A stretch of DNA of 64,000 bases. Origin: Candidatus Lloydbacteria bacterium RIFCSPHIGHO2_02_FULL_50_18 (GTDB lineage: Bacteria; Patescibacteriota; Minisyncoccia; Phycocordibacterales; UBA6899). The notes below the pieces were generated by a model. The model did no database searches. It was not told the origin of the DNA and saw only the letters and a list, made by a program, of their open reading frames with translations. This document shows, piece after piece, positions 51,878-64,000 of the stretch (position 1 is the first letter of the stretch; each line of letters starts with the position of its first letter). Both the position numbers and the translations under genes were made by a program. Location of the stretch: NCBI GenBank assembly GCA_001821395.1, contig MHLM01000003.1:46151-110150 (forward strand). Reading direction: 5' to 3'.

Positions 51878-52441
51878 ATGGAAGAAGAGAACAACATTTC
51901 TGCCACCCCTGTGCCCGCAACGCGTCAATGGTATGCGATCCATACCTACTCGGGATATGAGAATGCGGTGGTGCGCAATTTGCGACAACGTATCGAATCA
52001 CTCGGCATGGAAGATAAGATCTTTGATGTTGTTGTGCCAAAGGAAAAAAAGATCAAGATGAAAGCAGGTAAGCGCGCCGAAGTGGAGGAGGAGATCTATC
52101 CCGGCTATGTGCTCGTCAATATGATCTATGATCCCGACTCATGGTATGTGGTACGCAATACCCCTCGCGTCACGGGCTTTGTCGGCGCCGGCGTTGTTCC
52201 CGTGCCGCTCAATCAGAAGGAGATCGATGCGCTCTTCGGCCGCATGGGCTCAAAGATGGTGAAGCACGCAATCGACCTTACGGTTGGGGAGTCAGTGATC
52301 ATCACCGACGGCCCATTCAAGGAGCTTGAGGGACGTGTGGGCGAAGTGGATACTGAGCGTGGTCGTGTGAAGGTCATGGTCCCCATGTTCGGACGCGAGA
52401 CCCCCGTTGAATTGGATTTCCTTCAGATCAGGAAGATCTAG
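51878..52441 (+). CDS. nusG: transcription termination/antitermination factor NusG
   Basis: NGN domain (WYAIHTYSGYE) and KOW domain (GESVIITDGPFKELEGRV). Confidence 0.9.
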   Translation: MEEENNISATPVPATRQWYAIHTYSGYENAVVRNLRQRIESLGMEDKIFDVVVPKEKKIKMKAGKRAEVEEEIYPGYVLVNMIYDPDSWYVVRNTPRVTGFVGAGVVPVPLNQKEIDALFGRMGSKMVKHAIDLTVGESVIITDGPFKELEGRVGEVDTERGRVKVMVPMFGRETPVELDFLQIRKI

Positions 52442-52498
52442 ATGGTCTAAGGTCACTCCTTGGCTTTGAAAGGTGTGACCTTGATGAAGTTGACCATC
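52440..52498 (+). other. conserved structured hairpin element, copy 1 (overlaps nusG stop codon)
   Basis: agatggtc-taa-ggtcac-t-cctt-ggctttga-aagg-t-gtgacc-ttgatgaagtt-gaccatct. A second copy at 63814-63872 has compensatory stem changes. Confidence 0.6.
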
Positions 52499-52513
52499 TG
52501 AAATTTTTTCAAA

Positions 52514-52548
52514 AAACACCCTCACTTTCGTGGGTGTTCTTTTTTTCA
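52514..52548 (+). terminator. Rho-independent terminator
   Basis: aacaccc...gggtgtt hairpin plus TTTTTTT. Confidence 0.8.
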
Positions 52549-52725
52549 TTGCATCAGTACGAAAGCACTCTTTGCGGTGAGGTTGACAAGATAAAGAAAA
52601 AAAAGAATATGAAAGGAATAGTTCTTTGGGATCGTTTGTCATGGCGGAGTGGGCACCATCGTGAGTACTCCGCTATGACAAACTTACATAAGTAAGAGTC
52701 CGCTAGCGTATTGAAAGGAACAGCC

Positions 52726-53421
52726 ATGACAAAATGTGGAACACCCTTATCACTCGGTCAGTTCACCGAGTTTGCAGCTGCCGTATTGAAGGCCCTTCCG
52801 CGCGATATCGATCCGGGTATTGCTTTGCAGTGGGCTACGAATGGTGACGAGTTAAAAAAGGTCCTCCGAAGCGTACTCTGTCCAAGTAGCGACATAAAAA
52901 CACTCGTTGGTCTTGAGGAAGTTCGGAATTTCCCTAAAGAACGCTTGTGTCATATACCCTCATTCTTTCGTAATCGGCCCGGGTTGTATACCGCGAGTAA
53001 TTTTCACTGGGAAGTTGTGACGCAGTTTCAGGAGCCTGTTGAGATCCATGCAAACCCTCAGGATTCAGGAATAATTAGATGTCTTCAGCCCCACAAAGTG
53101 CGTTCTGCAATGAGTGAAATTTCTGGTTACTTGGAAGGAAAAGTATTTTTTCTCGACGAAATTGCACAGCTTGTTAATGACCAGTGGACTGGTCAAAAAA
53201 AAGTAGGTGGGTTGAACGTAGACGGAAGTCGTAATTATTTCGCCGTCACAGTGAAGAGCGTGATATTCATTGTTTCCGTGCATCGCAGTTCTTTCAAATT
53301 TTGTTCCAATGAGGGAATTACGATAAAGGAATCCTGGAACTATGATGCGTGGACTTCGGAAAAATGGCTGCTAACGTTTCCGCACGTTACGGAAGGAATA
53401 TTTTTTGTTGCCCATCGTTAA
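52726..53421 (+). CDS. hypothetical protein inserted between nusG and rplK
   Basis: AAAGGAA SD before [10 protein letters not shown]. 231 aa. No recognisable motifs. Confidence 0.5.
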
Positions 53422-53423
53422 GC

Positions 53424-53450
53424 CGACCGCCCAATGGGCGGTTTTTCTTT
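53424..53450 (+). terminator. Rho-independent terminator
   Basis: accgccc-aat-gggcggt plus TTTTT. Confidence 0.85.
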
Positions 53451-53586
53451 TTTCAAATATCATTTCCTTCAGTGATCTCGCTCGCTACTTGCGCAAAAGT
53501 CGGAAATTCAGTAGTATCTCCGTATCTGAAGGTGCCTACGTTGGTGGGGCTTCTCACTTCTCAGCGCAAAAATAGCATAAATTCAT

Positions 53587-54012
53587 ATGGCAAAAAAGAT
53601 CACCAAAAAACTTAAATTGCAGATTTCGGGAGGACGGGCAACCCCCGCACCCCCGGTCGGTCCCGCACTTGGTCAGGCAGGTATCAACATCGGTGATTTC
53701 GTCACGAAATTCAATGCGGCAAGCGCAAAGATGATGGGCGACATCATTCCCGTTGAGATCACCGTCTATGACGACCGATCGTTCACCTTCATTTTGAAGG
53801 TCTCTCCCGTGTCACGTCTTATCTTGAAAGCAATGGGCAAGGACAAAGCATCGAACAAACCGGGAACACAGAAGGCGGGTTCGATCACCAAGGCGCAAGT
53901 GCGCGAGATCGCAGAGAAGAAGATGCCGGACTTGAATGCTGCTTCGATTGAAGCCGCAATGAAGACCGTTGCAGGCACGGCACGTTCAATGGGAGTGACG
54001 GTCAGTGATTAA
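53587..54012 (+). CDS. rplK: 50S ribosomal protein L11
   Basis: [16 protein letters not shown]...[13 protein letters not shown]. 141 aa. Confidence 0.95.
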
Positions 54013-54034
54013 TGAACTGGTCAATAAAAAAAGA

Positions 54035-54058
54035 AAAACGCCGCGAGGCGTTTTTTTG
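54035..54058 (+). terminator. Rho-independent terminator directly after rplK (no rplA follows)
   Basis: aacgcc-gcgag-gcgtt plus TTTTTTT. Confidence 0.85.
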
Positions 54059-54060
54059 AT

Positions 54061-54339
54061 TCAGGAAGTAGTACGTTGTCCAGTTGTGAGGTAATTTAGT
54101 TCCGACTGAATTACTGCGAGCGAGTCGGTAAGTCTTTTCCTCTCCCGCTCGTATGTATCCATGTGTCCCCTGTGTTCCCGCTCGAATTGCTCAACCAAGT
54201 TTTTGGTGAGTGCGGCGTTGCCCGCGAGTCCGTGTGCAGTGAGAATCTCCTTGACCCGATTCTCGGTGAGTACCCGATAAACAGCATCCAGATTTAATGG
54301 ACATGCAAAGTCTGCGTCAGTCTTTGTTTTGTCGCTCAT
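54061..54339 (-). CDS. hypothetical small protein
   Basis: 92-aa ORF with a weak SD. Confidence 0.4.
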   Translation of the reverse strand: MSDKTKTDADFACPLNLDAVYRVLTENRVKEILTAHGLAGNAALTKNLVEQFEREHRGHMDTYERERKRLTDSLAVIQSELNYLTTGQRTTS

Positions 54340-54487
54340 ATCATTCTCTCTGTGTCGAAGGTATCCGTCGCAATAGTACCGTGGATGAATATTTTATCAA
54401 GTACGCACAGAAAAAACTGCCCTTAATTGGGCAGTTTTGATTAGGACTCGTCCACCAATAACTTCTAGTTATTGGTGGTGACGGTCC

Positions 54488-54733
54488 TTAGTGCAGATAT
54501 TTGATCGGCGTTGGGATACGCGGTTGGAAATAACGCGGATCGACATCATCAGCGGCCATCTTTTTGTGAAGTGCTTCGAGTTCCTGAAGATCGGAGTAGA
54601 GGCCATCAAGCGTTGAGCGAAGCTGCGCCATTTCCGGCGTATCGAGATACGCGGTCGTTGAGAGCGTCCGCTTCTGTGAAAGAAGGGCAGTTGCGGCGAT
54701 CGCGCTAAGCACAAAAACCAAAAGTGATCTCAT
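54488..54733 (-). CDS. small secreted protein (signal peptide)
   Basis: GGAGG SD before MRSLLVFVLSAIAATALLS. Two terminator hairpins downstream at 54420-54480. Confidence 0.45.
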   Translation of the reverse strand: MRSLLVFVLSAIAATALLSQKRTLSTTAYLDTPEMAQLRSTLDGLYSDLQELEALHKKMAADDVDPRYFQPRIPTPIKYLH

Positions 54734-54823
54734 ATATCCTCCATGGATGAGGCATGAACATCTGTTTTCAGAATACAATTGGTGGATTTTTTGTCAACAA
54801 AAAACAGGCATTGCCTGTTTGTG

Positions 54824-55060
54824 TTAAAGCCACGGTTCACCATTTAGTACTTCCTGTGTGCGCTTGCGGAGTTCTAGCTCGGCTGTCGAATATAATCCCA
54901 GATAAACCAGCTGTCCATTTCTCGTGTGAAGTTCAGCATGGAACGTCGTGTTTTTGATATTGAAAAAAGCGAGCCCCTCTCCACCGCCGGAAGGGTTTTT
55001 GTTCAATTCAGCAAGTACTGCGGTGACCTCTGCGGTGATCGCGACGACATCAAAATTCAT
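54824..55060 (-). CDS. hypothetical small protein
   Basis: 78-aa ORF divergent from the dCMP deaminase gene. No SD. Confidence 0.3.
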   Translation of the reverse strand: MNFDVVAITAEVTAVLAELNKNPSGGGEGLAFFNIKNTTFHAELHTRNGQLVYLGLYSTAELELRKRTQEVLNGEPWL

Positions 55061-55232
55061 AAAGATCTACCAGAAATTACCCCATGAAATTTTAGCGTTC
55101 ATCCTGAGATCGGTCAACAATATCGTGCTGGCGCCTGTCTGCATGCTCAATATGTGCATGCGGGACTCATATAAAGACCTCTCCCCACCTTGTTCACAGA
55201 TGAGGAGAACGCCCATTTGCTATACTCTACGC

Positions 55233-55733
55233 ATGAACAGCGAGGAAAAAAAGACACATCAGCGTCCGTCGTGGGATGAGTATTTTATGAAGATCGCGGA
55301 GATTGTCGGCACGCGCGCAACCTGCGACCGCGGGCGAGCGGGAACGGTCACCGTAAAGAATAAACGCATCCTCACCACGGGTTATGTCGGCTCTCCCGTG
55401 GGGCTTCCATCGTGCGATGAGCTCGACCACGAGCTCCACACGGTCATCCAGGTGGATGGCACAGAGTCACAGCACTGTATCCGCACCACACATTCCGAGC
55501 AGAATGCGATCGTGCAGGCGGCGCGCGTCGGAGTTTCGCTTGAAGGTGCAACGCTCTATACGCACATGGCGCCGTGTTACGTCTGCGCGAAGATGATCAT
55601 CAATGTCGGCATTGTGAGAGTGGTTTGCGCCAAGGATTATCACGGCGCAACGCAATCGAAGAAGGTGTTCAAGGATGCCGGCGTACTTCTGGAGTTGCTG
55701 TCCAAAGACATGGAAGTATACGAGAACATGTAG
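55233..55733 (+). CDS. dCMP deaminase (ComEB-like cytidine/deoxycytidylate deaminase)
   Basis: Zinc motifs HSEQNAI and PCYVCAKMI. Start at MNSEEKK. Confidence 0.85.
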   Translation: MNSEEKKTHQRPSWDEYFMKIAEIVGTRATCDRGRAGTVTVKNKRILTTGYVGSPVGLPSCDELDHELHTVIQVDGTESQHCIRTTHSEQNAIVQAARVGVSLEGATLYTHMAPCYVCAKMIINVGIVRVVCAKDYHGATQSKKVFKDAGVLLELLSKDMEVYENM

Positions 55734-55758
55734 GGCGTATTATTATTTTTTATTTTAT

Positions 55759-56316
55759 ATGGCAAAAAAACTTATTCTCGGTTTTGCGGGAGAAATGGCT
55801 GCTGGCAAGGGGACTGCGGCAAAATATCTGCTGGAAAATAGCGGTGCGGTCACGTATCGTTTCTCGAGCATGCTGCGCGACGTTGTGCGCCGGCTCCATC
55901 TTCCCGAGGATCGTCTTACGATGCAGCGGACGTCGACGGCACTCCGGAGGGAATTCGGTGAGGATCTCATGGCCAAGGTCATGTTCGAAGATGCGAAGAA
56001 AGATGAGCATCAGTTGATCGTGATCGACGGTGTACGCCGCCTTGAGGATGTGAAGTATCTGCGCGAGATCCCCGAGTTCAAGCTCTGCTACATCACCGCC
56101 CCGATGAAGACGCGTTACGAACGGCTTATCGTACGCGGGGAAAATGCCGACGATAATACAAAGACATTTGCGCAGTTCGAGGAGGATCACCAGGGGGAGC
56201 CGGAGCGCGAGATCACGAAGCTTGAGGCATTCGCGGCTGAGGTGATCGACAATACGGGGACGCTCCCAGATCTTTATCGTCAGCTTGACCAGATCGTCAA
56301 AAAATACGGCGAATAG
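55759..56316 (+). CDS. P-loop NMP-kinase-like protein (paralog 1)
   Basis: Walker A LGFAGEMAAGKGT. Shares its motif order with ORF 58876-59652. Confidence 0.5.
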   Translation: MAKKLILGFAGEMAAGKGTAAKYLLENSGAVTYRFSSMLRDVVRRLHLPEDRLTMQRTSTALRREFGEDLMAKVMFEDAKKDEHQLIVIDGVRRLEDVKYLREIPEFKLCYITAPMKTRYERLIVRGENADDNTKTFAQFEEDHQGEPEREITKLEAFAAEVIDNTGTLPDLYRQLDQIVKKYGE

Positions 56317-56383
56317 GCACTGTGCACCGATATTGCTTTGCGGTATGATGCACAAAGATATGTCTAATGTACAAGGAAACAAC

Positions 56384-56995
56384 ATGAAACGCGGGAAATT
56401 TATCGTATTAGAGGGCGGTGACGGTGCCGGAAAGGGTACGCTCGTAAATTATCTCAAGAAGGTATTACCTCCGGGTAAATTCATTTATACGCGGGAACCC
56501 GGAGGTACGCCCGTCGGAGAAAAAATTCGGGACTTGTTACTTAGCGAAGAGATGACTCCTGCGACGGAGCTTGGCCTGCATTTTGCGTATCGATTTGAAC
56601 TTTTTGAAAAGGTGATACTCCCTGCCATAAATAGCGGTGTACACGTGATCGACGAGCGACATGTTGCGTCCACGTACGCATACCAGATCGGCGGACGTGA
56701 ACGGCGTGACCTCTTGCCACTTTTTCGTTCGAATGAGCGTGCTTGTGCAAAGTATGCAACTCCTGATCTCTATGTTTACCTCGATCTCGATCCAAGGGAA
56801 GGGGAGCGCCGCCTAAAAGCCAAGGGCTTCGCACTCGACCGATTCGAGCTTGCGGGTCTCGCCTTTCATCAGCGCGTACGAAAAGCGTATCATCAGTATT
56901 TTCGCAAGCAGCGCCATGTTGTGGTCGATGCCGCAATGGGAGTGGAAGTACTCTGTAAAGAAATGGAACGCATTATTCGTGCAGAAACAAAATAA
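56384..56995 (+). CDS. tmk: thymidylate kinase
   Basis: FIVLEGGDGAGKGT P-loop, DRH/LID region. SD AAGGA upstream. Confidence 0.85.
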   Translation: MKRGKFIVLEGGDGAGKGTLVNYLKKVLPPGKFIYTREPGGTPVGEKIRDLLLSEEMTPATELGLHFAYRFELFEKVILPAINSGVHVIDERHVASTYAYQIGGRERRDLLPLFRSNERACAKYATPDLYVYLDLDPREGERRLKAKGFALDRFELAGLAFHQRVRKAYHQYFRKQRHVVVDAAMGVEVLCKEMERIIRAETK

Positions 56996-57063
56996 CCCTC
57001 ACCCGCCTGATCAATTTGGTCAGGCTTTTTGTTTCTCCCTCGCTCTGATACTATCTCTATATT

Positions 57064-58806
57064 ATGGAATCAAGGCTGCGAGATCATATTAACAGTGTGC
57101 TCACTGAGCTTGGCATGACCGACGTCGCTTTTGCATTAGAGCGTCCGGCGGATCTTTTGCATGGCGATTGGGCGACGAACGCCGCCATGGCAGGGGCAAA
57201 GAAGGCGGGTAAGAGCCCGCGTTCGCTTGCTGAGGAAATAAAAGTAAAACTTGAAGCAATAAATGATGAAGACATTGTCGCGATCGAAATAGCCGGCCCC
57301 GGATTCATCAACGTTAGGCTTTCAAAAACATATTTTGTCCGTGAATTGGAGACGACACTCGCGACGGAGAAGTACGGCAACAACGAAACCCTAAAAGGCA
57401 AAAAAGTGATCGTCGAATACACCGACCCTAACCCCTTCAAGGAATTTCATATCGGTCACTTGATGAGCAATACCATCGGTGAATCTATTTCCCGCATCAT
57501 CGAGGCTAGTGGCGCAGACACAAAACGCGCCTGCTATCAGGGCGACGTAGGCTTGCATGTTGCGAAGGCTATTCGATGGGTGTTAGAGGAAGAGAATATG
57601 GCAGAAAAAATCAGAGATGCTGTCGGTGGAGAGCCCGCCGAAACACTTCATGATTGGGAGTACTTACTTCAAACAGGAAAGGCGTACGCAAGGGGGAGTT
57701 CGGCATACGAAAAAAGTGATGTTGTGAAAGCCCAGATTGTTGAAATAAACAAAAAGCTATATACGAGGTCAGACCCTAAAGTAAATAAAATTTATGATGA
57801 GGGGAGAAAATTAAGTCTCGAATATTTTGAAACAATCTACAAACGTCTCGGTACTAATCATGGCGATGGAAAAGCATTCAATTTTTATTTCTTCGAATCT
57901 GAGACTGGAGTATTCGGTAAAGAAGTTGTTGAAAAATATCCGGATATTTTTGAAAAAAGCGATGGAGCGATCGTCTATAGGGGGGATGAGGCAAAGGGTC
58001 TGCACACACGCGTCTTCATCAACAAAGAGGGGCTGCCTACGTATGAAGCAAAAGAGCTGGGCTTGGCAAAGATAAAGTACGATGCGTTTCCCTACGATGT
58101 TTCTATCGTTGTTACCGGTAATGAGGTTAATGATTATTTCAGGGTTCTGCTTGATGCAATGAGCAAGGTGTTTCCCGAGCTTGCTGCAAAAACAGAGCAT
58201 TATTCCCATGGCATGCTTCGACTTCCGACGGGGAAGATGTCCTCGCGTACGGGCGATGTCATCACCGCCGAGTCGCTCATTGAGGAGACGAAGGAAAAAG
58301 CGCGTGCAAAGGTCGCTGAGAGTACTTTTTCTGATGCAGAGCGGGATGAGGTGGCGGAGCGTGTCGCGATCGGTGCGATCAAGTATTCTATCCTCCGTCA
58401 GGCTGCGGGAAAAGACATTATATTTGATTTTGAACAATCCCTGTCATTCGAAGGAGATTCCGGACCTTACTTGCAATATACCTATGCTCGTACAAGGTCT
58501 CTGCTCGCGAAAGCGGGAGACAAAAAGTTGGATGTCGGCAGCATGGCAGGGGAGGATATTCCTTCGCTCCATAAGCATATGTTGCGTTTCCCTGAAGCGG
58601 TGCTTCGTGCGGAGGCGAGTCGCGAACCGCACCACATAGCGACCTATTTGATAGAGCTCGCGCGTGAATTCAATGCTTTCTATGCGAATAATCCGGTCAT
58701 CGGCAGCAGCGATGAGGGTTACAAACTCGCACTCGTACAAATGACCTCCCGCATCCTTCGGCGCGGACTTGATCTTTTGGGTATCACTGCACCAGAGCGA
58801 ATGTGA
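57064..58806 (+). CDS. argS: arginine--tRNA ligase
   Basis: N-terminal Arg-tRNA-binding domain. HIGH-like FHIGHLMS. C-terminal DALR anticodon-binding domain. Confidence 0.9.
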   Translation: MESRLRDHINSVLTELGMTDVAFALERPADLLHGDWATNAAMAGAKKAGKSPRSLAEEIKVKLEAINDEDIVAIEIAGPGFINVRLSKTYFVRELETTLATEKYGNNETLKGKKVIVEYTDPNPFKEFHIGHLMSNTIGESISRIIEASGADTKRACYQGDVGLHVAKAIRWVLEEENMAEKIRDAVGGEPAETLHDWEYLLQTGKAYARGSSAYEKSDVVKAQIVEINKKLYTRSDPKVNKIYDEGRKLSLEYFETIYKRLGTNHGDGKAFNFYFFESETGVFGKEVVEKYPDIFEKSDGAIVYRGDEAKGLHTRVFINKEGLPTYEAKELGLAKIKYDAFPYDVSIVVTGNEVNDYFRVLLDAMSKVFPELAAKTEHYSHGMLRLPTGKMSSRTGDVITAESLIEETKEKARAKVAESTFSDAERDEVAERVAIGAIKYSILRQAAGKDIIFDFEQSLSFEGDSGPYLQYTYARTRSLLAKAGDKKLDVGSMAGEDIPSLHKHMLRFPEAVLRAEASREPHHIATYLIELAREFNAFYANNPVIGSSDEGYKLALVQMTSRILRRGLDLLGITAPERM

Positions 58807-58875
58807 TGATTGCGGTCAACTTGCGTTTCATCGTGATTTGCATACGATGGAGCAAGAAGTACAGAGGAGGTTGCG

Positions 58876-59652
58876 ATGAAAAAACTGATGTTGGGATTCG
58901 CCGGCGAAACGTCGAGCGGGAAGGGGACCGCCACTGATCTCGTGAAGGCATGGTATCCGGGCACGCCGTCATTCCGTTTCTCGGACTCCTTGCGTGATTT
59001 CTATAGACTGCTTCTGCAGAACTTTCCGCAGTTGCGCGAGCATAAGGTGCCGAGACTTTTTGAAGATCATGTGGCTGTCCGTTTGGTTGAAATACTGAAG
59101 CAGTCTTTTGGTTCCGATCTCGGTGCTACGGGGACTCGCTACGTTGCGTTTCATGAATTTGCCTACTGGCTCGTCGGACGGTTCATGCCGCTCCACTCCG
59201 GTTCTTGGCCGGAGACGGCGAGTACTGCCGACCTGCAGGGTATCTCAACAGCGGTCCGGAAATTTTTTGGAGAGGACACCCTTGAGCGCGCGATCATGTT
59301 TCGTGTCGCACAAAGCGGTATTGAACAGCCGTGTGTCATCATCGAAGGGATCCGTCGAATGGTCGACATCAGCACGCTCATGAATGATCCGAATGTACCG
59401 TTCCGCCTTACGTATGTCGAGGCCGAGCCTTCCATCCGCTTTGAACGGCACCAGTTACGGAATGAAAAGCCGGGTGATGACAAACTCTCGTTCGCGCAGT
59501 TCCTCGAACTGGGACAGGCCGAAGCGGAGGGAGAGATTCGCTCGTTGCGTCCGCACGCACATGCGATCATCCCGAACGATGGAACTCCAAAAAACTTTGA
59601 ACGCAGACTCAAGAAGGTCGTCATGAAGATGGTGGCAGAAATACTCCAATGA
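58876..59652 (+). CDS. P-loop NMP-kinase-like protein (paralog 2)
   Basis: Walker A LGFAGETSSGKGT, RFSDSLRD, IEGIRRMVD. Parallels paralog 1 (RFSSMLRD, IDGVRRLED). Confidence 0.5.
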   Translation: MKKLMLGFAGETSSGKGTATDLVKAWYPGTPSFRFSDSLRDFYRLLLQNFPQLREHKVPRLFEDHVAVRLVEILKQSFGSDLGATGTRYVAFHEFAYWLVGRFMPLHSGSWPETASTADLQGISTAVRKFFGEDTLERAIMFRVAQSGIEQPCVIIEGIRRMVDISTLMNDPNVPFRLTYVEAEPSIRFERHQLRNEKPGDDKLSFAQFLELGQAEAEGEIRSLRPHAHAIIPNDGTPKNFERRLKKVVMKMVAEILQ

Positions 59653-59657
59653 CCGAA

Positions 59658-59685
59658 GACCCCGCATGATCGCGGGGCTTTTCTT
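59658..59685 (+). terminator. Rho-independent terminator
   Basis: ccccgc-atgatc-gcgggg plus CTTTT. Confidence 0.8.
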
Positions 59686-59745
59686 TTGAGATCAAGTGCG
59701 TACAATAACGCCAGAATGATGTTGTGTATTTGGAAAGGGAATCCC

Positions 59746-60075
59746 ATGAGTCTGAAGATCACTGCTGTCGCCGCGCACTATATTCTGGCGCGGGTCCGGA
59801 AAGATCAATTGCCGCTTCGTCTGAGCAGGAAAATAATGAACTGCTGCGGCAACATCTCTCCTCGCTTTGAACGGTCCGCACGGCAACTCCCCGGTGATAC
59901 TCTTGTAGAGGCATACGGATTGGCCCTCGTGTGCGACCTCACTCTCTACCCTGAATTCGCAGACGTCTCGGTCGATCTGTATCTCGGGAAAGAAGGTTTA
60001 TTTCTCTCTGAGAAAGTGGTGGTCATTCCGGATGGTGCACAGCTGTGCGGTTGCGGGGCAAGTATCGTGAAGTAA
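59746..60075 (+). CDS. hypothetical protein
   Basis: AAAGGGA SD before MSLKITAV. 110 aa. C-terminal CGCG. Confidence 0.4.
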   Translation: MSLKITAVAAHYILARVRKDQLPLRLSRKIMNCCGNISPRFERSARQLPGDTLVEAYGLALVCDLTLYPEFADVSVDLYLGKEGLFLSEKVVVIPDGAQLCGCGASIVK

Positions 60076-60173
60076 AAATGTTCGTCGGGAACGCGCAACG
60101 ATCTGTTGTGCGTTTTTTCTTAAATAGCATCTTTTTTGCAATGAGCCCCCAAAACGTATAGTATAATCTCCAC

Positions 60174-63100
60174 ATGGATGAAGAAGACAAAAAACGATCG
60201 ATCAATGAGCGGGAAGAGGCAGTGCTCGCATTTTGGAAAGAGCGAGATATTTTTGAAAAGTCGCTGCAGCAAAATGTGGGCAAAGACCCTTACGTTTTTT
60301 ATGACGGGCCCCCGTTCGCGACCGGACTTCCGCATTACGGGCATTTGCTCCAGAGTACGATCAAAGATCTCATTCCGCGTTATCAGACGATGCGTGGCCG
60401 CTACGTACGCCGAAAATGGGGCTGGGACTGCCATGGATTACCAATCGAGAATATCGTAGAAAAAGAGCTCGGCTTCAAGAGTAAAAAAGATATCGAAGAA
60501 TATGGCATCGAACAGTTCAATCAGATGGCGCGCGATAGTGTGCTCACCTATGACAAAGAGTGGAAAAGTGTCGTTCCGCGCATGGGGCGTTGGGTGGACA
60601 TGGAGCATGCCTACCGGACAATGGATGCATCCTACACAGAGAGTGTCTGGTGGGGGTTCAAGGCGCTGTACGACAAAAAGTTGATCTACGAGGGGTTCAA
60701 GTCGATGCATATCTGTCCGCGTTGTGAAACGACACTTGCTGTTTCGGAGGTTTCACAGGGGTACAAAGATATCAAGGACATTTCGGTCTATATAAAATTT
60801 GAACTCGTTGACGAACCGGGCACATTTCTCGTCGCGTGGACGACAACCCCATGGACTCTGCCGGGCAACGTCGCGGTTGCGGTCAATCCGGATATCACCT
60901 ATAGCAAGATCACTCATGAGGGATCAACTTATATCGTTGCAAAAGAACGATCGATAGAGGTAATGAAACGAGGTTTCGGAGAGCAATTTAGTTTTAACGG
61001 AGACGAGTTTAACACCATCGAAGGCAAAGAGCTCATCGGAAGATCCTACAAGCCGTTGTTTGATTATTATGTGAATGACGAGAAACTTGAGCATCGCGAA
61101 AATGCATGGAAGGTCGTCGGTGCCGACTTTGTAACAGTAGAGAGTGGGACGGGTATCGTGCATGAGGCTCCGGCATTTGGCGAGGAGGACATGGAGCTCG
61201 CAAAGAAATTGAAACTCCCGATGATCCAGCATGTCAGTATGGACGGCACGATGAAGCCGGAGGTAAGGGATTTTGCCGGCATGCATGTCAAACCCAAAAG
61301 TGACGACGATAAGGTCCGATTGAGTACCGACATCGCTGTGCTGAAGTATTTACAGGAGCATGGAACCTTTTTTGCGAAGGAGAACCTCACCCACTCATAT
61401 CCGCATTGCTGGCGCTGTGACACGCCGCTCTTGAATTACGCGGCATCCTCATGGTTCGTGAATGTGACCGCACTCAAACCGCGCTTGATTGAGGAGAACA
61501 AAGAGATCAATTGGATACCGGAAAATTTTCGTGATGGACGTTTCGGAAAATGGCTCGAGGGTGCACGCGATTGGGCGATATCACGCTCGCGGTTTTGGGG
61601 TGCACCGCTTCCTGTATGGAGATGCAATAAGTGCGGAAAGGTTGACGCGCTCGGGTCCCTCAATGAATTACGAGAGAAGATCGGAAGTTCCAATACCTAC
61701 ATGGTGATGCGCCACGGTGAGGCGGAATCGAATCTGAATAATATCGTGAGCTACAAACCGGAGGATGAGATCCATCTGACCGAGAAGGGCCGAGCTCAGG
61801 TGAAGGCGTCTGCCGTGAAGCTAAAGGAGAAAGGAATCGACCTCATCATTGTGTCGCCGGTACTCCGCACGAAAGAGACGGCGGATATCGTCGCGGATGT
61901 ACTTGGAATCGCGAAGAGTGAGATCGTTGTTGATTCGCGTATCACCGAAGTGAATACGGGTGATTTCAGCGGTTGTCCGATAGAGAATTATCGCGCCTAT
62001 TTTACTTCAACGCTTGAGAAATTCACCAAACCATGTCCGGGCGGAGAGACGCTTGAACAAATGCGTATGCGCATCGCGGCATTTCTTTACGATATCGAGG
62101 AGAAGTACCACGGCAGAAAGATACTCATTGTCACGCACGAATACGGTACGTGGATGATGGAGGCTGCGGCAAAAGGGGCAACGAATGAGGAGTCTGCTTT
62201 GATGCGTGAAGAGCAGGGAGAAGATTATATCGATTATGCCGAAGTGCACGTGCTCCCGTTCGTGAACATCCCACATAATCAACACTACGAGCTTGATTAT
62301 CATCGTCCGTATATCGACCGCGTGAATTATCACTGCTCCTGCGGTCTGGGTACAATGACGCGTATCCCCGAAGTCTTCGACTGCTGGTTCGAATCAGGCT
62401 CGATGCCCTATGCCCAGTTTCATTACCTGGGAGATGAAACAACGCCGGAAGGGAAGTTATTCGTGAAAAATTTTCCCGCGGATTTTATTTCCGAAGGTGC
62501 CGATCAAACACGCGGATGGTTTTACACAATGCTGATCCTATCGGTCGGACTTTTTGATCGTGCCGCGTTCAAGAGTGTCATCACGACCGGACTTGTTCTT
62601 GCGGAGGACGGGATGAAGATGTCAAAAAAGCTCAAGAACTATCCCGATCCGGTCGAGATGGCTGAGAAATACGGTGCCGACGCGGTACGTTTTTATATGC
62701 TCAATTCTCCTATTGTGCGCGGGGAAGAGCTTCGTTTTTCAGCGCTTGGTGTTGATGAAGTATTCAAGAAGATCACTATTCGTCTCGATAATGTCCGTTC
62801 ATTCCTTGAAATGTATGCAAAAGATGCGGTGATCGCTCGTGCTCAGCCGCGATCGAAGAATGTGCTCGACCGCTGGATCGTCGCACGCTGGTTTGAGATG
62901 CACGCTGAAGTGACGCATCATCTTGATACGCATGAGCTTGATAGAGCAACGCGTCCGATTATGCCGTTCCTTGATGACCTTTCAACGTGGTACCTGCGGC
63001 GTTCGAGGGACAGATTCAAGTCTGACGACATGGATGATCGCATTGCCGCAACGGAAACGACCGGCTGGATACTGCTTCAGTTCGCCCGCCTCATTGCACC

Positions 63101-63701
63101 CTTCATGCCGTTCATCGCCGAGGATCTTTATCAGCGTCTCGCCATTGAAGACAAGAAGGAGAGTGTGCACCTTGAGCATTGGCCGGATGTCGGTGTCGCA
63201 GCAAGCGGCATCCTGAGCGAAATGGAAGTCGTACGCAAAATGGTAGAGGTCGCCCTCGCGCTTCGCGCTGAATCGGGGATGAAAGTGCGTCAGCCACTCT
63301 CGGAACTCTCATACAACCTCGAAGACAAAAAAGTACTCAGCGATGAAATGCTCGGCATCATAGCAGATGAGGTGAATGTCAAACATGTCGTCTTTGACGA
63401 AGAGATACGTATCACGGCCGAGAACAATAGCGATCACAAGTTGAGCGATCATGCGGGGATGCTCGTTTCCCTCGACATTGCGCTTACTCCAGAACTGAAA
63501 GAAGAAGGACAACTCCGCGACCTCATCCGCACCATTCAGGACATGCGCAAGAAAGCAGGTCTCAATCCAAGTGATCGCATCACCGTGACTGCACCAAAGG
63601 ACCAAATCGTTCTCCTCGAAAAATACCGCACCGAAGCCTCTCCGATCATAGGTGCCGATAATTTTAGCGCTGGCATGGAACTCACCATCGCGAAGGTGTA
63701 G
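60174..63701 (+). CDS. ileS: isoleucine--tRNA ligase (type 2) with an inserted histidine-phosphatase (PGAM-like) domain
   Basis: HYGHLLQS (HIGH), WAISRSRFWGAPLP, KMSKKLKN. 1175 aa. About 209 aa (61704-62330) beginning MVMRHGEAESN and containing IVTHEYG lie between the zinc-knuckle halves WRCNKCG and YHCSCG. Confidence 0.9.
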   Translation: MDEEDKKRSINEREEAVLAFWKERDIFEKSLQQNVGKDPYVFYDGPPFATGLPHYGHLLQSTIKDLIPRYQTMRGRYVRRKWGWDCHGLPIENIVEKELGFKSKKDIEEYGIEQFNQMARDSVLTYDKEWKSVVPRMGRWVDMEHAYRTMDASYTESVWWGFKALYDKKLIYEGFKSMHICPRCETTLAVSEVSQGYKDIKDISVYIKFELVDEPGTFLVAWTTTPWTLPGNVAVAVNPDITYSKITHEGSTYIVAKERSIEVMKRGFGEQFSFNGDEFNTIEGKELIGRSYKPLFDYYVNDEKLEHRENAWKVVGADFVTVESGTGIVHEAPAFGEEDMELAKKLKLPMIQHVSMDGTMKPEVRDFAGMHVKPKSDDDKVRLSTDIAVLKYLQEHGTFFAKENLTHSYPHCWRCDTPLLNYAASSWFVNVTALKPRLIEENKEINWIPENFRDGRFGKWLEGARDWAISRSRFWGAPLPVWRCNKCGKVDALGSLNELREKIGSSNTYMVMRHGEAESNLNNIVSYKPEDEIHLTEKGRAQVKASAVKLKEKGIDLIIVSPVLRTKETADIVADVLGIAKSEIVVDSRITEVNTGDFSGCPIENYRAYFTSTLEKFTKPCPGGETLEQMRMRIAAFLYDIEEKYHGRKILIVTHEYGTWMMEAAAKGATNEESALMREEQGEDYIDYAEVHVLPFVNIPHNQHYELDYHRPYIDRVNYHCSCGLGTMTRIPEVFDCWFESGSMPYAQFHYLGDETTPEGKLFVKNFPADFISEGADQTRGWFYTMLILSVGLFDRAAFKSVITTGLVLAEDGMKMSKKLKNYPDPVEMAEKYGADAVRFYMLNSPIVRGEELRFSALGVDEVFKKITIRLDNVRSFLEMYAKDAVIARAQPRSKNVLDRWIVARWFEMHAEVTHHLDTHELDRATRPIMPFLDDLSTWYLRRSRDRFKSDDMDDRIAATETTGWILLQFARLIAPFMPFIAEDLYQRLAIEDKKESVHLEHWPDVGVAASGILSEMEVVRKMVEVALALRAESGMKVRQPLSELSYNLEDKKVLSDEMLGIIADEVNVKHVVFDEEIRITAENNSDHKLSDHAGMLVSLDIALTPELKEEGQLRDLIRTIQDMRKKAGLNPSDRITVTAPKDQIVLLEKYRTEASPIIGADNFSAGMELTIAKV

Positions 63702-63783
63702 TACTTGAGAACCCTTCAAGCTCTTGCGTATCACATAAAATTGTGATATAATGCGATTATATAAGTTCATTGAATATTTGGTG

Positions 63784-63908
63784 TTGGCCAGAGCAGAAAG
63801 TGCCCCAATTGAAGACGGACTAAGGTCTCTCCTTGGCTTTGAAAGGTGAGACCTTGAAGAAGTTCGTCCGTCTTTTATCAACGAGACTTTTTCTGCTCTG
63901 GCGCAACC
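63784..63908 (+). other. conserved structured hairpin element, copy 2, enclosed in an additional 17-bp outer stem
   Basis: Core gacggac-taa-ggtctc-t-cctt-ggctttga-aagg-t-gagacc-ttgaagaagtt-cgtccgtc-TTTT. Outer stem ttggccagagcagaaag / ctttttctgctctggcgcaa. Confidence 0.6.
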
Positions 63909-63947
63909 AATTTCGGTAAGGCTCGGGCAAATTTGAAAGGAATTGTC

Positions 63948-64000
63948 ATGACACAACGTGTCGCCGACAGTGAAATCGATCGCGCGATGAAAATTGCGCG
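63948..64000 (+). CDS. 5' end of an unidentified gene truncated by the window edge
   Basis: ATG then MTQRVADSEIDRAMKIA..., runs off the window. Confidence 0.3.
   Translation, partial: MTQRVADSEIDRAMKIA

Follow-up and report, generated by a model that had tools for sequence, protein, structure and literature searches.

What is a hairpin of about 60 nucleotides doing behind both nusG and ileS? The question is raised by 64,000 nucleotides of Candidatus Lloydbacteria bacterium RIFCSPHIGHO2_02_FULL_50_18 (contig MHLM01000003.1, positions 46,151 to 110,150), referred to here as the window, in which the original prediction had placed a structured element after each of the two genes and had read it as a functional RNA or protein-binding motif. 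Both copies are present, and their structure and covariation are real. The implication of a dedicated RNA tied to nusG, ileS or the genes downstream did not hold up: at least 64 further distinct copies are found in public genomes and metagenomes of the Candidate Phyla Radiation (CPR), dispersed behind unrelated genes, with antisense and inverted copies among them, and relatives lack the element at both sites. On balance, we take it to belong to a dispersed palindromic repeat family of the Parcubacteria (CPR), similar to repetitive extragenic palindromic (REP) sequences and miniature inverted-repeat transposable elements (MITEs), and transcribed as a generic stable hairpin.

Copy 1 spans 52438–52501 and copy 2 spans 63811–63875, both on the plus strand. 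The stop codon (TAG, 52439–52441) of nusG (51878–52441) falls within copy 1, and copy 2 starts 109 nt beyond ileS (60174–63701). Common to both is an exact 19-mer, TCCTTGGCTTTGAAAGGTG (52457–52475 and 63830–63848), which with up to three mismatches has just these two matches in the window, against a chance expectation of 0.01. A covariance model built from 44 relatives scores 78.5 bits for copy 1 (E 7.5e-20) and 79.2 bits for copy 2 (E 4.6e-20), the next-best match in the window reaching 13.9 bits; the reverse strand of each copy scores just about 21 bits, compared with about 79 bits in the sense direction.

The same hairpin is predicted for both copies, with energies of −29.6 kcal/mol (z −6.5) for copy 1 and −31.0 kcal/mol (z −4.9) for copy 2. 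At its base is helix P1, of 10 bp (52438–52447 with 52492–52501, and 63811–63820 with 63866–63875), the 5′ strand of which holds the nusG stop codon in copy 1. Above P1, on the 3′ arm alone, is an 8-nt bulge, AUGAAGUU in copy 1 (52484–52491) and AAGAAGUU with one extra C in copy 2 (63857–63865). P2 comprises 9 bp and opens with a U·G pair (52448–52456 with 52475–52483, and 63821–63829 with 63848–63856). Stacked beyond it are a U·U mismatch (52457 and 52474 in copy 1) and P3, CCUU/AAGG (52458–52461 with 52470–52473, and 63831–63834 with 63843–63846), closed by the loop GGCUUUGA (52462–52469 and 63835–63842). Between copy 1 and copy 2 there are three double changes, all of which preserve pairing as the original prediction had stated (A-U to U-A in P2; U-A to C-G and U-A to A-U in P1), and no disruptive change.

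The family was traced in two ways. A scan of one genome per species with the apical 19-mer as query returned 20 loci, of which 17 carry a real hairpin, all in CPR metagenome-assembled genomes, and three are stemless chance matches; the hosts are Candidatus Lloydbacteria, Kaiserbacteria, bins named only ‘bacterium’ and, at two loci, Saccharibacteria, and one Lloydbacteria genome holds six copies across six contigs. A scan of metagenomes with only the base fixed (TAAGGT...ACCTTGRAGAARTT) and the apex left free added about 45 real copies amid chance matches. The base is conserved even where the apex alone was imposed, the bulge being present in 11 of the 17 genome copies, and the apex is not conserved where the base alone was imposed. 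It ranges from the window type with an 8-nt loop, through a type that is 14 nt longer (GGUUCGACCUUaaGAAUUUGCAUUcAAGGUCGAACC), to near-perfect stems of about 30 bp; the apical loop, conserved between the two window copies as had been claimed, is the least conserved part across the family.

Run over 423 kb of copy-bearing loci, the covariance model gave 139 matches, 71 of them above 43 bits, which represent 64 distinct sequences once exact duplicates are removed. The densest locus has up to five matches in 14.5 kb, and several loci have three to five; element length varies from 64 to about 120 nt. Additional copies lacking covariation would have refuted the original prediction; the additional copies do covary. 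Two Saccharibacteria loci (L010, 535–571, and L014, 1840–1875) carry a hairpin-only form, in which 35 nt are identical to P2 and P3 of the Parcubacteria element, with neither the bulge nor the conserved P1. This form overlaps the end of one open reading frame (ORF) and stands about 20 nt ahead of the next start codon. The apical module therefore also travels by itself, and does so across CPR lineages.

Pairing throughout the family was assessed on 44 copies, in which 93.2% of cells are paired, compared with 76.7% when shuffled and 31–54% with partners slid; double changes occur at 17 of the 23 pairs, and none of 500 shuffles attains the observed covariation. Because this set had been chosen with a weak pairing filter, covariation was recounted on unfiltered copies, namely 11 of the full type that have the apical 19-mer in common (two from the window and nine from the genome scan). 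Here 92.1% of cells are paired, 12 of 23 pairs are double-changed, nine of the ten P1 pairs are compensated and again 0 of 500 shuffles match.

The conserved core is asymmetric, with a closing C-G pair, then the U·G pair, then UAAGGU opposite ACCUUG, and the bulge RAGAAGUU on the 3′ arm only. The original prediction had left the 5′ taa unpaired and counted 11 nt in the bulge, but UAAGG pairs with CCUUG, a pairing with covariation support across the family (A-U in 39 and G-C in five copies at one pair, U·G in 36 of 44 at the next), and the conserved bulge is therefore one of 8 nt. No variation is seen at its positions 3–5 and 8, and 41–43 of the 44 copies agree at positions 2, 6 and 7, figures to be read with the metagenome search pattern in mind, which itself fixed five of the eight positions and restricted two to A or G. 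The bulge is equally conserved in genome copies found via the apex alone. The earlier claim that unpaired nucleotides are conserved is upheld. The adjoining U·G is retained in 50 of the 64 unique copies. In the stems without this pair, G·U and A·C are similarly frequent (23 versus 23 in one set, 42 versus 32 in the other), so wobble usage does not single out the RNA strand.

P1 has the consensus aaAGACGGMC/GKCCGUCUuu and is lengthened to 14–27 bp in many genomes, each with a consensus of its own (for example, ACAAGGCGGAAGACGGCC...GGCCGUCUUCCGCCUUGU and AUCAAAUGACGGAC...GUCCGUCAUUUGAU); genome-specific subtypes share the inner hairpin and even distal P1. As the extended P1 consensus is genome-specific, whole units evolve in concert inside a genome.

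By crude gene calls (greedy longest ORFs), 41 copies have an upstream gene in their own orientation and 23 an upstream gene in the opposite one. Of the 41 co-oriented copies, about 25 begin between −13 and +17 nt from the stop codon; only three of the 23 copies facing a convergent gene end 20 nt or less from the stop of that gene, to which they are antisense, and the distance to the next start codon is looser, at about 30–340 nt. The upstream genes are functionally unrelated: FolD, an amidase, a peptidase M16, DnaJ, a helix-turn-helix protein, GDH, UvrC, a sigma factor and, identified by eye, an rpoC-like gene and ribonucleotide reductase (RNR), in addition to nusG and ileS in the window. Copies antisense to their neighbours also occur. 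Copies accumulate in intergenic DNA with a preference for the stop codon of a co-oriented gene, and their stems are kept complementary by compensatory change.

Arrangements vary from single copies to tandem and inverted pairs, the latter including tail-to-tail pairs at a spacing of 5–17 nt (L060, L050 and L096). Some copies are nested within other hairpins, and in some the apex has been swapped for stems of about 30 bp. The intergenic DNA of loci L018 and L019 is nearly identical except for one whole copy and for a 56-nt insert in the apex. Together with the window sites described below, these comparisons show copies being gained, lost and remodelled among closely related genomes. Alignment of the repeat-bearing tract of L018 (5050–6580) with that of L019 (3800–2150) reveals hardly any mismatch, whereas the flanking ftsK region has about 90% DNA identity and the protein of a neighbouring gene, denoted gene X, only 70% identity; the locus is a mosaic around the repeats.

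Both window copies lie in strain-specific insertions. The first, of about 1.0 kb, extends from nusG to the rplK leader (52438–53472, plus strand) and contains copy 1, a terminator, a leader hairpin, an orphan ORF (52726–53421), a second terminator (53425–53452) and, at the right edge, a second copy of the 11-mer ATTTCCTTCAG (53462–53472). In relatives with 99, 96, 92 and 90% identical NusG, the stop codon is TGA and 70–156 nt without the element lead to rplK; seven loci from relatives lack copy 1. Loci L148–L151, from a 97% relative, have the identical element in the same position, but with another terminator behind it (as seen in L150) and an 81-aa ORF on the opposite strand. The sequence common to this haplotype and the window stops just after the element. 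Both element-bearing haplotypes carry cargo, which differs between them, and all four element-less haplotypes carry none.

The second insertion, of about 1.2 kb, lies between ileS and recO (63753–64000, plus strand, the remainder lying past the window and seen in locus L162). It holds an outer hairpin with copy 2 inside, an orphan ORF of 190 aa (start codon 63949) and about 380 nt before recO. In relatives with 91, 81 and 80% identical IleS, ileS is separated from recO by only 7–71 nt, and copy 2 is absent from all three loci. Since both copies sit in strain-specific insertions, they are recent arrivals and not regulators of nusG, rplK, ileS or recO, which argues for a REP-like repeat.

Scans for a catalogued identity were negative. 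No family of Rfam 15 matches anywhere in the window at the gathering threshold, as had been left to be checked; a permissive scan (E up to 10) of the two sites gave only sub-threshold chance matches, and a scan (E up to 0.1) of three loci with long variants gave nothing meaningful. Literature searches turned up no published account of such a CPR repeat or motif. With no description in Rfam 15 or the searched literature, the repeat is previously uncatalogued.

Which known kind of element does it resemble? REPs, including the CGTC REPs that have no dedicated transposase, show the same traits as the Parcubacteria repeat (PMC3733652). Both are short palindromes, dispersed, multi-copy and extragenic, mostly 3′ of ORFs, with subtypes per genome or species and frequent inverted dimers; their stems are kept by compensatory change and make plausible RNA hairpins, their presence varies by strain and, as for the CGTC REPs, no dedicated transposase was seen. 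The element differs in its length (64 to about 120 nt, two to four times the 20–40 nt of a REP), in a core of three helices and a bulge in place of a single short stem-loop, in the 8-nt one-sided bulge, the U·G and the replaceable modular apex, in its CPR host phylum and in its low copy number in the present genome. It also has no unpaired GTAG or CGTC tag of the REP kind (PMC3733652), its CCGUC being paired with GACGG in P1. An association with REP-associated tyrosine transposases (IS200/IS605-type Y1), as known for GTAG REPs, was not seen among the 360 ORFs around copies, in which no neighbour family recurs. Owing to the missing tag, the greater length and the other architecture, we place the element outside the GTAG/CGTC families. 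For E. coli, Liang, Rudd and Deutscher (2015) are reported to have found that translation is affected by REPs lying no more than about 15 nt from a stop codon, and the proximity of the element to stop codons resembles that case.

The MITEs and other small mobile repeats of bacteria, such as Correia/NEMIS, RPE, ERIC and BOX, are reviewed in PMC2229807. The element shares with them the form of a non-autonomous palindrome that makes a long RNA hairpin when co-transcribed, insertion polymorphism between strains and the capacity to affect mRNA ends; its size is at the low end of their range. In this element the whole unit is the inverted repeat, and neither a target-site duplication, nor terminal inverted repeats matching a known insertion sequence, nor a parent element was found.

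Several observations sit uneasily with a REP-like repeat. No transposase and no neighbour family recurring beyond synteny was found among the 360 ORFs, and so no linked transposase was seen; a clean empty site with a target-site duplication was not found either, the junctions being messy. Copy number is low here, at two in about 70 kb, and the preference for stop codons depends on the crude gene calls mentioned above. The arrangement of ftsK, two copies, gene X and one copy is kept in four genomes in which gene X is 43–47% identical, and orthologous, compensated copies lie 3′ of the RNR gene in three genomes, DNA identity around these positions being about 80%. Positions kept in this way are as compatible with a selected function as with mobility. 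A site recognised at the level of RNA would be expected to show a sense-strand preference at stop codons, a conserved U·G (C·A on the opposite strand) and an invariant one-sided bulge, as the element does.

Ranked next is a dedicated cis-acting RNA motif, the view of the original prediction, in which selection on the RNA would maintain the hairpin either for the binding of a conserved Parcubacteria protein or to signal processing. The target of such a motif would be the 3′ end of the upstream mRNA, through stability or termination-coupled events at the stop codon, or else the downstream leader, and its multi-copy state would reflect repeated recruitment and not selfish spread. The strong covariation, the invariant AGAAGU of the bulge with its adjoining U·G (50 of 64), the model scores of about 79 bits in sense against 21 on the other strand, the roughly 25 copies abutting a co-oriented stop as against three abutting a convergent one, and the positions kept around gene X and after RNR despite protein identity of 43–47% and DNA identity of about 80% all agree with it, as does the near mismatch-free repeat tract of L018 and L019 between ftsK at about 90% DNA and gene X at 70% protein identity. 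Yet close relatives do without the element at both window sites, antisense copies and inverted pairs exist, the neighbouring genes are functionally unrelated, the apex is freely replaced, G·U shows no significant excess over A·C (42 versus 32) and no curated RNA family matches; we regard this explanation as doubtful, if the best of those ranked behind the repeat. More doubtful again is a recombination site or portable homology patch, the core of which would be the joining point for foreign DNA in a swapping of small gene cassettes among Parcubacteria, loosely comparable to integron attC sites or to gene exchange mediated by repeats. Each window copy stands exactly at the left edge of an insertion of about 1 kb with a single orphan ORF, the cargo between nusG and rplK is confined to element-bearing haplotypes and differs between the two, the sequence these share ends right after the element, and L018/L019 is mosaic around its copies.

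The architecture moreover parallels that of attC, a folded single-strand site with two boxed stems, a terminal structure that varies and, on one arm only, unpaired or extrahelical bases that determine its polarity, situated directly 3′ of ORFs and bordering variable single-gene insertions. The element is nevertheless not an attC site, because the RYYYAAC/GTTRRRY boxes are absent: its 3′ arm reads GUUGKCC, with the GUU in the unpaired bulge, and its 5′ arm GGMCUAAGG contains no AAC. It also forms no array, has no integrase among its neighbours, which are mostly ordinary housekeeping genes, and precedes the cargo ORF where an attC site would follow it. Further points against a joining site are that the two insertions share just the 45-nt core, that a cargo homologue in locus L155 has no element in the roughly 60 nt upstream of its terminator, and that the sample comprises the two window loci only. 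Least probable of all, and very much so, is an unusual family of intrinsic terminators in which P1 serves as the GC-rich stem between an A-tract and a U-tract, with the remainder as a decorated ‘loop’. The P1 consensus, aaAGACGGMC...GKCCGUCUuu, has the look of A-tract, stem and U-tract; stable hairpins do follow stop codons directly, and copy 2 ends in GUCCGUCUUUUAU, with which it could terminate transcription. Over the 8 nt after P1, however, copies average 1.9 T and none of 37 has five or more, only about a quarter are T-rich across the P1 3′ end, the sequence is conserved across genes and genomes, and antisense and tandem copies occur upstream of genes. Copy 1 and its L150 counterpart each have a canonical terminator of their own downstream. 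Since U-tracts are few and ordinary intrinsic terminators are present elsewhere in the window and genome, the family is not one of generic terminators, as the original prediction had held. A REP-like repeat accordingly ranks above a dedicated RNA motif, a recombination anchor and a terminator family, in that order.

A number of more specific identities were tried and rejected. A mimic of the L11 site of rRNA in the GTPase-associated centre, or an L1/L11 leader, was discarded because the UUGGCUU match is superficial (in rRNA helix H43 the GGC is in the stem, whereas in the element it is in the loop) and the nusG–rplK spacer of relatives lacks the element. A kink-turn has tandem sheared G·A pairs beside a 3-nt bulge, and here no GA adjoins either helix on the unbulged strand; in a UAA-GAN motif UAA stands opposite GAN, which here is not adjacent to the flanking pairs. 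Loop A of the hairpin ribozyme is defined by AGAA opposite N*GUC together with a docking loop B; GAGAAGU is in common, but the defining partners and the second domain are absent and the Rfam model does not match. A CsrA site is excluded by the loss of GGA in 24 of 44 copies (A at bulge position 1), and a selenocysteine insertion sequence or other recoding signal by copies that follow TAA, TAG and TGA alike, the in-frame position of the conserved UAA in copy 1 being no more than an accident. Small ORFs listed as starting within the element are artefacts of calling the first start after a stop, and a pseudoknot between bulge and apical loop has implausible geometry, with a loop that is not conserved. 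No tRNA gene was found in the window, and no tRNA-like or transfer-messenger-RNA-like identity was found; phage origin was rejected, as viral contigs gave no match to either search pattern. The TIGR arrays of CPR (PMC12045711) are tandem arrays, whereas copies of the element are dispersed.

Close to the two copies are further features. Directly after copy 1 is a separate canonical intrinsic terminator (52511–52546, plus strand), with the stem ACACCCUCAC/GUGGGUGU and then a U run, and each copy precedes a downstream gene (start codons at 52726 and 63949), both as originally described. Enclosing copy 2 is an outer hairpin (63787–63902, plus strand), which had been described as a 17-bp clamp; the clamp exists but has 15 bp, with 63787–63801 paired to 63886–63888 and 63891–63902 around a 2-nt bulge, and it is specific to its locus and outside the repeat family. 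The copies in L017 and L018 are likewise enclosed, by an outer stem of 14 bp. Preceding the second insertion is a promoter-like TGaTATAAT (63744–63752), and copy 2 may for this reason lie in the leader of the 190-aa ORF. Common cassette ends for the two insertions were ruled out, the 45-nt core being all that they share. Loci L162 and L163 are identical through ileS, copy 2 and the 190-aa ORF and diverge from about 10350, with recO in one and frr in the other, which reflects either a rearrangement or an assembly variant adjacent to the insertion. IleS itself has a histidine-phosphatase domain (His_Phos_1, residues 511–672) inserted in the synthetase core, as do all 120 of its best homologues.

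At the nusG–rplK site, the 11-mer ATTTCCTTCAG is found at the 3′ end of nusG (52416–52426) and again at the right edge of the insertion, where the ancestral stop and spacer, TGAtctc, follow and the four codons ATCAGGAAGATC are absent. The joint could be a long duplication with a deletion, or the product of recombination; a 4-nt repeat at copy 1, ATCT, could be chance. The 231-aa orphan is 100% identical to A2845_04930 of Candidatus Lloydbacteria bacterium RIFCSPHIGHO2_01_FULL, as found by homology search from the ATG start, and an exact-protein look-up of the 236-codon version with a TTG start returned no record. Its homologue in L155 (232 aa, 69% identical) is also upstream of rplK, on a short contig that starts too close to the terminator to show more than the roughly 60 nt without an element. 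Among close Lloydbacteria (L141–L151 and L155) this spacer (52442–53586) is a variable spot with four states: empty, element with an 81-aa membrane-like minus-strand ORF, element with the 231-aa orphan, and the 232-aa homologue. Located in the leader of the orphan ORF is a hairpin of about 23 bp (52633–52684, GUUUGUCAUGGCGGAGUGGG...UACUCCGCUAUGACAAAC), which in comparison with L155 is better conserved than the protein and includes a compensated pair; it may be a cis-regulatory leader. The roughly 100 nt upstream of rplK (53473–53586, cuugcgcaaaagucggaaauucaguaguaucuccguaucugaaggugccuacguuggugggGCUUCUcacuucucag) are conserved among close relatives, and RNAalifold on seven sequences of this region gave no consensus structure. 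In the region 53587–54340 no rplA (L1) follows rplK (L11), and small minus-strand ORFs take its place, the same in all relatives fetched. The missing rplA is consistent with the loss of uL1 that PMC9297842 gives for some CPR lineages.

How might a REP-like repeat of this kind behave? It would spread or be exchanged as DNA, through a transposase, a recombinase or recombination between copies. A protein that recognises the element specifically is indicated by its invariant one-sided bulge, its U·G and its sense-strand preference next to stop codons. Recognition may take place on single-stranded DNA during spread or on RNA after transcription, and the asymmetric core would probably be the site bound by that mobilising protein or by one that binds RNA. 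Once in place, the element would be transcribed together with the gene before it or in the leader of the gene after it. The stable hairpin could then present a generic barrier, whether 3′-terminal or within a leader, in mRNA protection or processing, and copies with a U-rich P1 tail, such as copy 2, may bring about some attenuation. It is also conceivable, though unlikely, that the core is recognised by a Parcubacteria DNA-joining protein and is the anchor of a lineage-wide system for inserting and swapping single-gene cassettes behind housekeeping genes; organisms of minimal genome would then have a mechanism resembling that of integrons, but with neither attC nor IntI. A specific RNA-binding partner acting at stop codons is an equally open alternative.

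The genomes of CPR bacteria, Parcubacteria included, are about 1 Mb in size, tightly packed and regarded as having few repeats and little regulatory RNA, and a structured repeat conserved across the lineage, with an invariant one-sided bulge, is for that reason a useful handle. The family is new, although elements of its kind are known, and its phylum is one without catalogued repeats of this type; in annotation it should not be taken for a leader or riboswitch of nusG, rplK, ileS or recO. Such a repeat breaks or confuses metagenome assemblies, and it marks recent gene gain, both window copies flagging insertions of orphan genes. From its conserved core a protein partner is predicted in organisms that are unculturable, be it an enzyme of mobilisation or a factor that binds RNA. 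Were the core an anchor for cassettes, minimal genomes would have in it a novel path for gene flux; if that role or a specific protein partner is shown, the importance of the repeat would rise sharply.

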